Positions 23,296 through 61,632 of a DNA stretch of 64,000 bases are shown piece by piece. The number at the start of each line of letters is the position of its first letter. Within the stretch, counting starts at the first letter, position 1. The stretch lies in NCBI GenBank assembly GCA_000092065.1, contig CP000600.1; one strand, written 5' to 3'. This DNA is from Ostreococcus lucimarinus. Taxonomy: Eukaryota. A model generated the notes under the pieces. That model saw only the letters and a list, made by a program, of their open reading frames with translations, was not told where the DNA came from and did not search any database. Made by a program: the position numbers and the translations under genes.

Positions 23296-24903
23296 ATGCC
23301 TCGCCCGCGCGCCGCGCGCCTCGCCGCGTTCGACGTCGCCGGCGTCGTCGCTCTCGTCGCCGTCGCCGCGGCGTGGTGCGTCGTCCTGTCCACGGCGTAC
23401 GGCGGCGAAAACCGCTGCGACATGAGCTACATGTACCCGAGTTTCTTCCCGGTGACGAACGTCGCGCTGGCGTCGCCCGCGCACGCGCTGTATCGCTACC
23501 GCGACGCGCGCGCGCGCGATGACGACGTCGACGATCGCGCGCGCGCGAGCGGCGACGCGAGCGCGTGCGTGGTGATCAACGTCTTCGTCCCGGGGACGGG
23601 GGGCGGTTACGGGCAAGCGCGAAGCGCGGCGAGCGGGACGCTCGAGAGCGAAGGATGCCGCGTCGAGCACTACGCCCTGGATTTCGCGGAAGAACTGAGC
23701 GCGTATAATGGAATGCTACTCGCGAGACAGGCGAAAAGCGTGGCGCGGGCGCTGGATGGGTTGAGGACGCTCGAGCGCGCGAGGACGGAAAGACGCGTCG
23801 TGGCGGGATGGAGCGTCGTGGGACACAGCGCGGGAGGATTGGCGGCGATGGAAGCCGCGGCGAGCGCTCTGGGAAGTGAGTTAGGGCTGACGATAGTGAA
23901 TCTAGCGACGCCGAGCGCGTGGAATCCGGTGAGTCTGACGTTGACGCAGCGCGCGCGAGAGGCGGGCGTGCGGCGACGTTGGCGAACGAGCGACGCGAGA
24001 CGGAGCGTGGCGCTCGTCAGCGTCGTCGGTGGCGAGCGCGATCGGCAGGTGAGCTCGAGCCCGATGGGTTTTGTCGATGATTGGGTAGAAGAAGGGCTCG
24101 GTGTGAGCGCGAGCGCGAGCACGGCGTCGCGGGTGGGCGTGTCGGCGGATCATCGATGCGCGGCTTGGTGCAAACAGTTAATCGTCGCGATCTCGCGTGG
24201 ATTCGCCGAGGCGTTTCCACGATCGAAGGTTCTCACCGCGCACCAGCGCGCGCGCGCGTTTCGCGACGCACTTGGTGATAAAGACGCGGCGCGCGCGCCG
24301 TCACCGACTTTCGGGGTGCCCGCGCGAGCGTACGAGGCGACGCAAGAGCGCACGCCGAGCGCTCTGGCGGGCGTCGTCGCCAACGTATTAGCGCCGCGGT
24401 CGGTGATGAGCGCCTTCGCGTTCGCGCTCATCGCACACGCAGCATCACCGAGCATACTTCGTGAGCGCGTCGTGGAATCCGTGATCGCGTCGCTCGCGGT
24501 CTACGTCGCGAGTGGGTGGATAGCGAATCGCGCGTTCGACGTTCGCGGCGACGTCAGACGCGCGTTGACGACGTGCATGGTGCTCGCGCACGTCCCATCT
24601 CTCATCGCGTGGGCGCACCACGTTCTTCGCACCTTACCGACGTATGGTTTTCACGCATTGGTGCCGCCGTTCGGTGCGATGGACGCCGTCGCGCTCTGCT
24701 TCGCCGCGGCGTCGACGCGTTTCGGCGCCATCGCTCGCGATCAGTCGTCGGGCGCGTCGCGCGCACGTCAAGTCGCGTGGTGTCTCGCCGCCGGCGCCGC
24801 CGCACCGGGCAACGTCGGTCTCATCCACATCGCCGGCGCCGTCGTTCACTGCGCGGAGACGCTCCGTCTTCCTCGCGCGTCGCTGCCGAAGAAAGTCGCG
24901 TGA
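23296..24903 (+). CDS. GPI inositol-deacylase PGAP1/Bst1-like
   Basis: N-terminal TM helix, then the CDMSYMYPSF motif. Lipase-like GHSAGG nucleophile elbow (VVGHSAGGLAA). Multiple C-terminal TM helices, as in PGAP1. Confidence 0.65.
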   Translation: MPRPRAARLAAFDVAGVVALVAVAAAWCVVLSTAYGGENRCDMSYMYPSFFPVTNVALASPAHALYRYRDARARDDDVDDRARASGDASACVVINVFVPGTGGGYGQARSAASGTLESEGCRVEHYALDFAEELSAYNGMLLARQAKSVARALDGLRTLERARTERRVVAGWSVVGHSAGGLAAMEAAASALGSELGLTIVNLATPSAWNPVSLTLTQRAREAGVRRRWRTSDARRSVALVSVVGGERDRQVSSSPMGFVDDWVEEGLGVSASASTASRVGVSADHRCAAWCKQLIVAISRGFAEAFPRSKVLTAHQRARAFRDALGDKDAARAPSPTFGVPARAYEATQERTPSALAGVVANVLAPRSVMSAFAFALIAHAASPSILRERVVESVIASLAVYVASGWIANRAFDVRGDVRRALTTCMVLAHVPSLIAWAHHVLRTLPTYGFHALVPPFGAMDAVALCFAAASTRFGAIARDQSSGASRARQVAWCLAAGAAAPGNVGLIHIAGAVVHCAETLRLPRASLPKKVA

Positions 24904-57748: not shown

Positions 57749-59086
57749 TCATCGCCAAAGTCGAGATTCGACAAGAAACGCGCGCAACTCTTTCAACCCC
57801 TTGTCGACGGCCAGCGCGTCGCGCTTGAAACGCAGCGGCTGCCGCATGTTGGGATTCGTCATCGTTTGCATTTCCGACAGCCAATGCTCCTCGCGCTCGT
57901 CCGCCACGCCGGCATCCATGCCCGCCTCTCGAGCACGCGCCCACATAAATCTCAACCACGCGCGGCGAAAATGGAATTCGTGAATCTCATCGTCGCTCAA
58001 CGCGCTCGAGTCGTCCTCGCTCGCTGCGTTACGTGATATGCTCGAAATCGCCGACGCACGACGCACGTCTGCGAGCGAAACGACGACGCGCTCTTCTATT
58101 CTACGTGACGCCAGATAACGCATCGCGATTTCCACGCCGAGCGCGTCTCTGAAATTCCTCGGCCACGATGGGTTCAAACTCGGTGGAAGCGACGTGTGCG
58201 TGGGACCGGCGTGTTCATCGGGTTGCACACCGTTTTCATCGTTCTCTACGGGCTCTTCGGTGTCCATCGCAGACGCCGATGCGGTCACGAGCGAGGTGTC
58301 TACTTCGTACGACGCCACCGGCTTCGCGCCGGCTTCTATCAAGACGTCGCCAATCTTTCTCGCGATCGATGCGTGCGTGTCGTCCTTCTCGAGGGCGATC
58401 CCAAACGCCCGCGTCCACGTTTCGGCTTCTTGTTTGATGTCCTCATCGATCGGCGCTAAGCCAAGGGCAATCATGAGGTTAAAATATCGCGCGCACCATC
58501 CCGCCTTGAGCGAAAACTCTCTCCGCTGCGCGTCGTCTAATACGTACTGGGACGCCGCCATCTTCGCAGCGCGCACCTCATCTCGTGCCTCCTGATCCCT
58601 CGCTAACGCCTCGTTATCGCGCTCGTTCGCCGAGTAAATCGCCGCCTCAAGCTGCGACGAAAGCATTTCTCTATGCGCCTCGAACTCGTGCTCGCGTCGA
58701 CGCAATTGCGCCTCCAGTCTCGTCAACACCCTCGCTTCACCGACGTTCTCCTCCCTCAGCGCGCGCACGCGCTCCTGCAGCTCCACCACCATCTCCGCCG
58801 ACGTCTTCGCCTTCCTTTCCGCCTCCTCCAGCGCTTCCCGCAACCGCGCGTTCTCCTCTCTCGCCGCCCGCTCGCTTTCCCGTCGCCGCTCCGACTCTCG
58901 CGCCGCCGCGTCGTCATCCGGCGACCGCATCCCCTGTCCCTGCGCGCTCGTCCGCCCGTTCCCTCCACCTCCCGTCGTCGTCGTCGTCGCCCGTTCCCCG
59001 CCCGCGGTTCGCCCTCTATTCGGCGATCGCGCCTCGCCTCGTTCGCGTTCGCGTTCCCCAAACTTTAACCGTTGTCGCGCGTCCAT
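57749..59086 (-). CDS. hypothetical coiled-coil protein with conserved C-terminal domain
   Basis: About 445 aa from ATG 59086 (MDARQRLKFGE...). N-terminal coiled coil (REENARLREALEEAERKAK...). Globular C-terminus (..AGWCARYFNLMIALGLAPIDEDIKQEAETW..). The start is uncertain. The ORF extends in-frame to 59341. Confidence 0.4.
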   Translation of the reverse strand: MDARQRLKFGERERERGEARSPNRGRTAGGERATTTTTGGGGNGRTSAQGQGMRSPDDDAAARESERRRESERAAREENARLREALEEAERKAKTSAEMVVELQERVRALREENVGEARVLTRLEAQLRRREHEFEAHREMLSSQLEAAIYSANERDNEALARDQEARDEVRAAKMAASQYVLDDAQRREFSLKAGWCARYFNLMIALGLAPIDEDIKQEAETWTRAFGIALEKDDTHASIARKIGDVLIEAGAKPVASYEVDTSLVTASASAMDTEEPVENDENGVQPDEHAGPTHTSLPPSLNPSWPRNFRDALGVEIAMRYLASRRIEERVVVSLADVRRASAISSISRNAASEDDSSALSDDEIHEFHFRRAWLRFMWARAREAGMDAGVADEREEHWLSEMQTMTNPNMRQPLRFKRDALAVDKGLKELRAFLVESRLWR

Positions 59087-59562
59087 CCATTCGTTCCCTT
59101 TTTTCCCCCGTTCCCGCGCCTCGCTCGCCGATTTCGCCGCGGTCGCGCGCCGCGTCGCGAATCGCTCGCCGTCGCCCTCGCGCGCGCGTTCGCGCGGCGT
59201 CGGCGCCGGCGGTTCGACGTCGACCTTTCGCGCCAACCTGCGTCGTCGAGCGATTCGCGTCAGTCTTCCCTCTCGCGGCGTCGCGCGCGCGTCGCGAATC
59301 GTCGCGCGCGCCGCGCGCGCGTCGCGCGATGTCTCTCGCACCTCGCCGCGACGTCGCGCGCGCGATCGAGCATCGCGCGCGTCGCGACGCGCGTCGAGCG
59401 CGCGTGTGACGTCACAGTCGCGCGCTCAAATCGAACATGCGCGCGCGCGCGTGCGCCTCGCGCGCGATTCCGCGCGCGGCGATCGCGCCGAGACGCGCGA
59501 ACGCGCGGTCGACGACGCGAACGGCGCGCTCGATCGCGGCGCGGGCGTCGAGAGAGGAGGAA

Positions 59563-60535
59563 ATGATGGCGAAACTCATGGGGATGATGGGACTCGGCGG
59601 CGACGGCATCGTCGCCGCGGCGGACGCGCTTCCGGGACGCGCGCAGGCGATGCGCGTGAGCGATCAGCACTACGTCTTGAAGGGGCACGCGATGCGCGCG
59701 CCGTTTCCCGAAAATCTCGAGCGGGCGACGTTCGCGACGGGGTGCTTTTGGGGGACGGAGAAGGTGCGACGACGACGACGCGAGCGCGACGCGGTGAGGG
59801 CGAGGGCGACGATCGAGACTGACGGGAGATTGCGGTGCGCGCGATAGATGTTCTGGCGCGTGCCGGGCGTGTACACGACGGCGGTGGGGTACGTCGGCGG
59901 TCACACGCCGAACCCGACGTACGAGGAGGTGTGCAGCGGACGCACCGGACACACCGAGTGCGTGCAAGTGCTCTACGATCCAGCCGTGGTGTCGTTCGCG
60001 GATTTGTTGGCGATGCACTGGACGTGCCACGATCCGACGCAGGGTAACCGACAAGGAAACGACCGAGGGACGCAGTACAGAAGCGGGATTTATTGCGACA
60101 CCGAGGCGCAGTTGGCCGTCGCGAAGGACTCCGCCGAGGCGTATTCCGAGGCGTTGAAAGCGGCGGGGAAGAATGGGGCGATCACGAGCGAAATCAAGGG
60201 ACCGGGCGATACGTTTTATTACGCCGAGGACTACCACCAGCAGTAGTGCGTGCATCGAACGCTTTCGCGTCTCGTCTCGAGCGTCTCGTCTCGCGAGCGC
60301 GAAGCGCGCCGACTGACCGACGACGCGTCTCGACCACCACAGTTTGGCCAAACCGCGCAGCCGACCGTACTGCTCCGCGCAACCGACGGGCGTGCCCGTG
60401 CCCGAGGCCTGGCTCAAGGCTAACGGCGCCAAATTCGGCGCTGGTTACTGGAAAACCTTCGGCCCCGCGCCCGGCTGCACCATCAACGTGCCCAACGCGC
60501 CCGTGACGCTCGAAGAAGCCCTGGCGGCCAACTAA
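59563..60535 (+). CDS. msrA: peptide methionine sulfoxide reductase MsrA, copy 1, 3 exons
   Basis: Exons 59563..59763, 59848..60245 and 60343..60535. The spliced product ...[13 protein letters not shown]|[45 protein letters not shown]...[11 protein letters not shown]|[18 protein letters not shown]... is collinear with MsrA (GCFWG active site, [29 protein letters not shown]). A Tyr codon is split TA|T across intron 2. Both introns have GTGCG(A/T) ... ACTGAC ... YAG. Confidence 0.88.
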
Positions 60536-60675
60536 CGCGCTCGAGCCGCATCACGCACTCTCGTTGTCATTCAAATCATTCAACGCACGCGAACGGACGA
60601 CGTCACGCGGGAACAACGCGACGCAACGCAATCCATCGTCCCGCCTCCGCGCCACTCTCCGCCTCGCGCGTCCCG

Positions 60676-61431
60676 ATGCAACAGTTGAAGAACATCTTCC
60701 GCGGCGCGTCCGCGTCGCAATCTCGCGCCCCGATCGTCGTCTCCTCGACGCATTACGTGTTGAAAACCGACGTGAAGCGAACGCCGAGCGGGCACGACGT
60801 CGTCGTCGTCGCCACGGGTTGTTTTTGGGGCGCGGAAAAGATGTTTTGGCGACTGCCGGGCGTGCACAGCACGTCGGTCGGGTACGTCGGCGGACGCGCG
60901 ACGAACCCGACGTACGAGGAGGTGTGCTCGGGCTCGACGGGACACACCGAGTGCGTTAAAGTGACGTACGACCCGCGGAAGGTGTCGTTCGCGGATTTGT
61001 TGGCGATGCACTGGACGTGCCACGACCCGACGCAGGGCGACGGGCAAGGCAACGACCGCGGGACGCAGTACAGGAGCGGGATTTATTGCACGACGGACGC
61101 GCAGTTAGCGATGGCGAAAGACTCGGCGAAAGCGTACGGGGAAGCGCTGCGGGCGGCGGGGAAGAGTGGGGCGATCACGAGCGAAATCAAGGGACCGGGC
61201 GATACGTTTTATTACGCCGAGGACTACCACCAGCAATACTTGGCCAAGCCCGGAAGCCGGCCGTATTGTTCGGCGCAACCGACGGGGGTGCCGATGCCCG
61301 TGACGTGGCTCGAGACGAACGGGGCGAAGTTTGGCGCCGGATTTTGGGCGAAGTACGGCCCGAAACCGACGTGCACGATTGGCGTGCCGAACGAACCGAT
61401 TTCGTCGGAAGACGCGTCCGCGGCGCGGTGA
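60676..61431 (+). CDS. msrA: peptide methionine sulfoxide reductase MsrA, copy 2, intronless
   Basis: Single 251-aa ORF with the same MsrA motifs ([28 protein letters not shown]...[23 protein letters not shown]). It lies 140 bp downstream of copy 1. Confidence 0.88.
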
Positions 61432-61510: not shown

Positions 61511-61632
61511 CCGAAGATTTAGATCGCTAAGCGTCGCGCGCGCGCGCGTCGTCGAGGTCGCGCGGTTACAATCGCGTCGAGCGTCGTCGAGGTCGCGCGG
61601 TTACAATCGCGTCGAGCGTCGCGTCTCGCGGC

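Follow-up and report, generated by a model that had tools for sequence, protein, structure and literature searches.

Plants have compartment-specific paralogues of peptide-methionine (S)-S-oxide reductase (MsrA, or MSRA in plants), with plastidial and cytosolic isoforms. A comparable pair is found in the green alga Ostreococcus lucimarinus, in a window of 64,000 nucleotides (nt) of contig CP000600.1 (assembly GCA_000092065.1) in which two msrA genes, copy 1 (most likely 59437-60535) and copy 2 (60676-61431), lie in tandem on the plus strand. The DNA is that of strain CCE9901, whose protein XP_001422465.1 is matched exactly by the open reading frame at 23296-24903. As in plants, one paralogue carries a transit-like N-terminal extension and the other lacks it, but the Ostreococcus genes are chromosomal neighbours between which sequence is still exchanged. 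They moreover belong to the bacterial/animal type, and poplar MsrA (2J89) is a much weaker match (E-value 6e-43 versus 1e-65). The closest solved structures for both copies are the E. coli and bovine MsrA proteins (1FF3, 2GT3, 1FVA), with which they share the full-length domain, the catalytic Cys of the GCFWG motif and an equivalent of Cys198, at about 60% identity to E. coli MsrA. They differ from the E. coli enzyme in having Pro at the position of Cys206, and another downstream Cys (in PGCTIN or PTCTIG) may act as the second recycling Cys; a further difference from both reference proteins is the eukaryotic presequence of copy 1.

Two other described systems bear on the history of the pair. 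Like tandem duplicates that undergo concerted evolution, the two genes show near-identical tracts within otherwise saturated paralogues, species-wise grouping in the converted segment only and a candidate polymorphic tract, but here the tracts lie within one exon which is bordered by introns of one partner only. The second system is the introner elements IE-A to IE-D of Micromonas (PMC3879977, PMC4540971), which resemble the msrA introns in that they, too, are spliceosomal, of recent origin, restricted to particular lineages and found in a mamiellophyte. In Micromonas RCC299 the short class IE-C has the branch motif GACTGACG in common with canonical Ostreococcus introns (PMC3879977, PMC4540971). 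The membership in a repeated family that characterises introner elements was, however, not found for the Ostreococcus msrA introns in the DNA searched.

The explanation favoured here, which is considered probable as a whole, is that of an old, compartment-specialised and conversion-linked gene pair in which introns were gained in copy 1. The tandem pair would already have been present in the common ancestor of the sampled Ostreococcus-like lineages, most likely with both genes free of introns. The gene ends would then have diverged to saturation and the central 398 nt would have been kept alike by ectopic gene conversion, with the non-homologous introns of copy 1 sitting at the edges of the homogenised zone. 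Copy 1 would have gained an intron at a Lys/Met boundary before O. lucimarinus split from the lineage represented by locus L007, and subsequently an intron within a Tyr codon on the O. lucimarinus branch, and other species would have gained introns at three further positions.

Structure and age of the tandem pair

Copy 1 consists of three exons. Exon 1 (59437-59763), delimited with the list of open reading frames (ORFs), the orthologues and the PF01625 profile, encodes the presequence, the mature N-terminus and GCFWG. It is followed by intron 1 (59764-59847; 84 nt, phase 0) at the Lys/Met boundary in GCFWGTEK/MFWR, by exon 2 (59848-60245; 398 nt), which is homologous to 60841-61238 of copy 2 in the codon alignment, and by intron 2 (60246-60342; 97 nt, phase 2), which splits the Tyr codon TA/T in YHQQY. 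Exon 3 (60343-60535, including the stop codon) carries the Cys of RPYCSAQ, which aligns with the recycling Cys198 of E. coli MsrA (1FF3/2GT3), and a second Cys in PGCTIN. A spacer of 140 nt (60536-60675) separates the stop codon of copy 1 from the start of copy 2, which is a single intronless ORF of 251 amino acids (aa) without a presequence. The joined segments 59563-59763, 59848-60245 and 60343-60535 encode an uninterrupted MsrA of 263 aa. Both copies match the PF01625 (PMSR) profile nearly end to end (positions 2-152 of 153; cut-off 23.7 bits), with E-values of 5.5e-60 for copy 1 (202.5 bits) and 1.3e-57 for copy 2 (194.8 bits). The active-site codon in GCFWG is TGC at 59743-59745 in copy 1 and TGT at 60820-60822 in copy 2, and in both cases encodes Cys and not selenocysteine (TGA). 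A sequence-only reading of the locus, made without database searches, had described two tandem full-length MsrA genes with introns of 84 and 97 nt, a gap of 140 nt and four peptide blocks identical between the copies; coordinates, structures and blocks all proved right. It is likely that the locus holds two separate and functional MsrA genes. The protein of copy 2 is present exactly in a Joint Genome Institute (JGI) metagenome, and the metagenome contig L001, which carries only copy 2, begins at 60546.

The two genes differ in their N-termini. The first in-frame ATG of the copy 1 ORF is at 59437, 126 nt upstream of the start proposed by the sequence-only reading, and the additional 42 residues are MRARACASRAIPRAAIAPRRANARSTTRTARSIAARASREEE. 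Approximately 59437-59553 is predicted to encode a presequence of 39 aa which is rich in Arg, Ala, Ser and Thr, with 11 Arg/Lys residues and no Asp or Glu. All copy-1 orthologues bear a basic extension of 36-65 aa that runs into a conserved ..ASREEEL(M/V)AKLM stretch. Since 59437 is the first ATG of the ORF and the stretch is conserved in orthologues, the real coding sequence (CDS) of copy 1 is most likely 59437-60535, encoding 305 aa, rather than the 263-aa form starting MMAKLMG, and the N-terminus given earlier is probably wrong. The copy-2 orthologues all start directly at M-x-x-(L/I)-(K/R), and the same short N-terminus is found in six other lineages. On these features copy 1 would be a plastid or mitochondrial form and copy 2 a cytosolic form. 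The earlier suggestion that the two proteins reach different compartments is thus probably correct on account of the upstream presequence, but not on the basis of the N-termini that were originally compared.

The pair is embedded in a conserved gene order, namely SAICAR synthase, a coiled-coil gene (roughly 500 aa, on the strand opposite to the msrA pair), msrA-1, msrA-2, Yos1 and GDP-mannose dehydratase. Syntenic tandem pairs occur in six further lineages (L007-L011; L012, which is O. tauri GCA_002158475.1; L013/14; L017; L019/20; L021/22) as well as in other O. lucimarinus strains (L002-L005, L035-L038), and all 14 msrA gene models across the lineages close in frame. The tree of the flanking genes has the topology ((window, L007), (O. 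tauri, L019)), L013, (L017, L021). In trees of the N- and C-terminal segments of msrA, all copy-1 sequences stand apart from all copy-2 sequences. Synonymous divergence (dS) between copy 1 and copy 2 of the window is saturated at both gene ends, at 1.9 in the mature part of exon 1 and 2.05 in exon 3, compared to about 0.9 between the window and its L007 orthologue. The syntenic pair in seven lineages and a dS of about 2 at both ends together indicate that the tandem duplication is old and predates the split of at least seven Ostreococcus-like lineages, and the copies are not the recent duplicates that had been implied. The same evidence speaks against copy 2 being a processed retrocopy, an origin that the sequence-only reading had likewise thought improbable: its ends are saturated, its N-terminus is distinct and conserved, six other lineages have syntenic orthologues of it, some of them with introns, and it lies in tandem at the ancestral site.

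Gene conversion in exon 2

In exon 2 the picture is different, with a dS between the copies of 0.53 against 1.9 and 2.05 in exons 1 and 3. An alignment of the two CDSs, which had been suggested as a check, thus showed that similarity does change at the intron-bounded exon 2. Identical synonymous codons make up 82 of 108 in exon 2 and 24 of 56 in the other exons (Fisher p=6e-5), and as many as 26 such codons follow one another without interruption (permutation p=0.0002). Two blocks are shared perfectly, one of 45 nt (59988-60032 = 60981-61025) and one of 69 nt (60174-60242 = 61167-61235). It is only in the tree of the central segment that copy 1 of the window groups with copy 2 of the window, and this segment-specific grouping of the paralogues of one species, combined with clustered identical silent sites, is what defines interlocus conversion. 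When the copies are set against the orthologue groups in a sliding comparison, sequence appears to have been transferred both ways. It is therefore probable that the exon 2 zone has been homogenised repeatedly through ectopic gene conversion, seemingly with each copy acting as donor. The long identical blocks, previously taken as a sign of recency, are instead a conversion mosaic restricted to exon 2. The converted zone in the window corresponds to exon 2, the homologous stretch that is enclosed by the two introns peculiar to copy 1.

Conversion also appears to be variable within the species. The segment 60981-61235 of copy 2 (plus strand), flanked by the blocks of 45 and 69 nt, carries 32 differences from copy 1 in the window, all of which are located in 61026-61166. 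In the L002-L005 haplotype all 32 are erased and the two copies are 100% identical over 255 nt; the erased sites include a single-nucleotide polymorphism private to that haplotype's own copy 1. The protein of this converted copy 2 (P0007) belongs to a cluster of 80 members and is represented by 6 contigs from several samples, and the reference-type copy 2 occurs in at least 5 natural contigs (L001, L035-L038). A conversion tract of 141-255 nt thus appears to be still polymorphic in natural populations. The conversion mosaic in the finished reference sequence is independent of these metagenome haplotypes.

The location of the homogenised zone varies between lineages. In L013 it is not the centre but the C-terminal 60 codons of both copies (the 5591 and 6550 regions) which are homogenised, with a dS of 0.38 and a peptide of 27 residues that is identical in the two. 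The L007 paralogues have a lower dS of 0.6 in their central and C-terminal parts, consistent with old conversion there.

Intron distribution and direction of change

Outside chromosome 2, introns of O. lucimarinus conform to a consensus derived from expressed sequence tags, with a 5' site GTGCGTG and the branch site GACTGACG (Irimia and Roy, PMC2483917), and ACTGAC is present in 87% of the confirmed introns (PMC2483917). Both introns of copy 1 fit this pattern of 5' site, ACTGAC branch and YAG acceptor. Intron 1 has the 5' site GTGCGAC and a terminal TAG, and its branch site is AGACTGACG, whose branch A lies 25 nt before the 3' end. Intron 2 has GTGCGTG and CAG, and its branch site CGACTGACC lies 26 nt before the 3' end. 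Because the frames are restored exactly and both introns carry species-specific splice signals, the predicted structure is far beyond chance. Intron 2 also contains a perfect 14-nt tandem duplication (GCGTCTCGTCTCGA, 1.9 copies) at 60267-60293.

Across the genus five distinct intron positions are found over the pair. In the window copy 1 has the Lys/Met intron (84 nt) and the TA/T intron (97 nt), and copy 2 has none. In L007 the Lys/Met site is occupied in both copies, by 61 nt in copy 1 and 96 nt in copy 2. O. tauri (L012) has an intron of 102 nt in copy 1 at P/Y in AKPNARP/Y and one of 62 nt in copy 2 in the Ala codon (G/CG) of YLAKP, and in L013 both copies are interrupted at the same site, the Gly codon (G/GA) before CFWG, by 217 nt in copy 1 and 66 nt in copy 2. 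Both copies are intronless in L019 and in L017/L021, as is the only gene of L015, a GC-rich and non-syntenic single-gene outgroup. About a dozen more full-length homologues of Mamiellales type are uninterrupted ORFs. This spread of positions, together with several lineages and outgroups that have no introns at all, bears out the description of the pair as a natural experiment on intron turnover.

The TA/T intron was not found in the 12 other gene copies (L007, L012, L013, L017/L021, L019) nor in the outgroup L015. It is present in L002-L005 and L035-L038 of the O. lucimarinus group and can be inferred for the P0230 lineage, whose exon 2 is 97% identical and whose exon-2 ORF also stops at YHQQ. 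One gain explains this group-confined distribution and loss would have to be repeated many times, so the intron was most likely gained once on the O. lucimarinus branch. Comparison with sister lineages, which the sequence-only reading had proposed, thereby favours the second of its two options, recent intron gain in one duplicate, and its leading idea of a precise loss through complementary DNA (cDNA) is not needed for the 97-nt intron. The Lys/Met intron has a longer history. Since L007 shares the site, and there in both copies, this intron appears to be older than the split between O. lucimarinus and L007. The more parsimonious scenario is that it would have been gained in copy 1 and copied by conversion into copy 2 on the L007 branch only. 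The Lys/Met introns of the different paralogues and species have no alignable similarity beyond the splice signals and are uninformative on a common origin. On the distribution as a whole the intron-bearing copy is most likely the derived one.

A competing scenario for the Lys/Met site is that copy 2 once had this intron and lost it precisely in O. lucimarinus, for instance by recombination with reverse-transcribed mRNA. This is possible though doubtful, and it is the one respect in which loss through cDNA stays in contention, as one of two scenarios for the 84-nt intron. The occupied site in both copies of the sister lineage L007 is in its favour, and copy-2-type ORFs that start at MFWR in the related L039-type lineage (P0032, P0092) would allow for an ancestor with the intron in both copies. 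However, it requires one event more than a gain in copy 1 followed by conversion on the L007 branch, and the lower dS of the L007 paralogues in their central and C-terminal parts is consistent with old conversion there. No intron interrupts copy 2 of L019 and L017/L021, the Lys/Met site is unoccupied in O. tauri, no footprint of a cDNA event is visible, and intron 2 would be left unexplained.

It is less probable still, and on balance improbable, that all five positions are ancestral and that the pattern reflects differential loss in an intron-shedding genome. Introns are few in Ostreococcus, and lineages of this kind often lose introns precisely, which lends this proposal some plausibility. 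The intron-poor state has been discussed in PMC2483917. The sites common to both paralogues in L007 and L013 could also be read as introns that existed before the duplication. Three of the positions, however, are each found in one gene copy of one lineage, two lineages are intron-free, and with the L015 outgroup and the dozen or so Mamiellales-like homologues uninterrupted, many parallel losses would be needed for each position. That the gene is of the bacterial/animal type and close to E. coli MsrA speaks against it as well. Gain in copy 1 from an intronless ancestral state is thus preferred to both forms of loss.

The source of the introns was sought in several collections. BLAST searches of the 64-kb window with both introns yielded only partial low-complexity matches of the GAC/GCG type, the eight introns had no second copies in 315 kb of related loci, and an exact 23-mer of intron 2 occurred in JGI metagenome contigs at the msrA locus only. 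Introner elements, of which many near-identical copies would be expected elsewhere, were thus rejected as a source for the window, the 315 kb of loci and the metagenome 23-mer scan. A repeat at intron 2 that resembles a target-site duplication (ACCACCAGCAGT at the exon end and the similar ACCACCACAGT at the intron end) had a single-test p of 0.02, which loses its significance once the 16 flank tests are allowed for; no repeat of this kind borders any of the other seven introns.

A more tentative proposal, possible though doubtful, is that the tandem pair of this intron-poor genus is a hotspot at which spliceosomal introns of a non-introner type have been gained recently. Between three and five independent insertions would have occurred in two tight clusters, GCFWGTEK/M and YHQQY-LAKPxxRP/Y, which flank the conversion zone. 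Introns may also have been copied between the paralogues by conversion, as in L007 and L013 where both copies are occupied at the same site. If true, double-strand-break repair at a recombining locus would yield both the conversion tracts and the new introns, each of which already has the strict GTGCGTG/GACTGAC signals.

Splicing, gene models and significance

The proposal that copy 1 is a disrupted pseudogene with unspliced insertions, or that copy 2 is an assembly duplication, is very unlikely. It draws on the fact that a spliced copy-1 product or junction was found neither in the protein collection nor in the metagenome contigs. The insertions, however, have complete splice signals typical of the species and restore the frame exactly, and purifying selection is seen in each of the three copy-1 exons, with a ratio of non-synonymous to synonymous divergence (dN/dS) of about 0.1 relative to the L007 orthologue (about 0.11 in exon 3). 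The sequence of intron 1 is invariant (100% identity) over 14 independent contigs, and that of intron 2 is conserved at 98-100% over 7. No fewer than 8 independent assemblies show the two-gene layout, the difference between the copies ranges from 15 to 55% among segments, and since the syntenic pair is present in other lineages and strains an assembly duplication, which the sequence-only reading had raised as a concern, is ruled out. In a sister lineage the same copy-1 protein exists in two forms, one that reads through the Lys/Met intron (P0150, P0153) and one from which the intron has been removed exactly (L039-L041). The latter three contigs all end about 50 nt past the stop codon, which fits an origin from mRNA, and L039 (3004-3792) also covers two neighbouring genes; the simplest reading is that they derive from RNA. 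For O. lucimarinus itself, splicing of copy 1 would thus be well supported, by inference from the signals, the selection and the sister lineage.

Several points weigh against the explanation of an old, conversion-linked pair with introns gained in copy 1. The best match to the spliced O. lucimarinus copy-1 product in the protein collection is 80%, so that the product itself was not found there, and the junction of exons 2 and 3 without intron 2 has zero matches in the JGI metagenome contigs. L039-L041 could be intron-less genomic alleles instead of cDNA. Gain versus loss was decided by parsimony only, the species tree was built from four flanking genes by neighbour-joining with midpoint rooting only, and the assignment to compartments is drawn only from amino-acid composition and conservation. 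The converted haplotype comes from short-read metagenome assemblies, in which chimeras occur (L006, P0231) and repeat collapse is possible, and the fusion contigs L023-L028 described below are likewise short-read assemblies that may be artefacts.

Some metagenome sequences that seemed informative were rejected. L006 had the appearance of an allele without intron 2, but its first 340 nt are from an unrelated and AT-richer MsrA joined inside exon 3, which makes it a chimeric contig; P0231 is a similar chimera with a bacterial C-terminus. In both cases (1-340 in L006) the join to the Ostreococcus gene is at the conserved YHQQYLAKP region, and they serve as a warning for alleles inferred from these assemblies. 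P0122 (196 aa) was considered as an intron-bearing copy 2 and set aside, as its contigs begin 32 nt upstream or hold an N gap. A further 13 contigs (L023-L028, for example L023 3719-4591) contain a single hybrid gene, which begins as copy 1 (exon 1, intron 1, exon 2), switches inside the shared 69-nt block and continues as the 3' part of copy 2, with everything between the junction points gone. This hybrid could be a deletion allele formed by unequal crossover or an artefact of repeat collapse.

Public annotation has one msrA gene at this locus. The RefSeq protein XP_001422479.1 (P0125, 256 aa) joins exon 1 of copy 1 (59584-59763, from MMGLGGDG) to copy 2 at MFWRL (59763^60841) and treats 1,077 nt as an intron. 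The MsrA model P0006 of O. tauri GCA_002158475.1 (L012 5001-6870, a gene range of 1,870 bp for a product of 257 aa) is analogous, with copy 1 joined to copy 2 further downstream at GHTEG/CVRV. That a single gene does exist, with copy-1 exon 1 spliced to the body of copy 2 at 60841, has exactly these two deposited structures in its favour and is scarcely credible, given that the supposed intron includes 591 nt which encode conserved MsrA sequence and are under purifying selection, as well as the complete N-terminus of copy 2 that six other lineages have kept, that there is no CTRAC branch site within 80 nt before 60841, and that intron-free lineages encode two separate full-length ORFs. Both models are chimeras, with one annotated gene per genome where two exist.

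The surroundings of the pair are variable too. Between copy 2 and Yos1 a 35-nt unit is repeated 2.4 times (61539-61621), and near this position strains L002, L004, L029 and L037 carry an extra 1.5 kb (L002 6877-8378) with a minus-strand ORF of 421 aa that has a weak match to YHYH (PF14240); a similar gene is present in L019. The insert is by its content a gene presence/absence polymorphism beside the msrA pair. On the other side, the short divergent spacer at 59344-59436, which separates copy 1 from the coiled-coil gene on the minus strand (ORF 57749-59341), is rich in CG repeats and appears to vary in length between strains, being about 155 nt longer in L002 (4568-4669) than in the window.

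Each phenomenon at the locus is of a known kind; what is new are the corrected gene models and the fact that, in a genus poor in introns, a single recombining locus has an unusually dense and lineage-specific set of intron positions. Two MsrA genes are present here in O. lucimarinus and in O. tauri alike, of which one is probably organellar. The same 2 kb provide a compact and datable case of ongoing ectopic conversion between ancient paralogues together with lineage-specific intron gain, which is of note in a genome with very few introns and unusually strict splice signals. Because metagenomes abound in close relatives with different intron states, the timing, and possibly the mechanism, of intron gain could be followed in population data.

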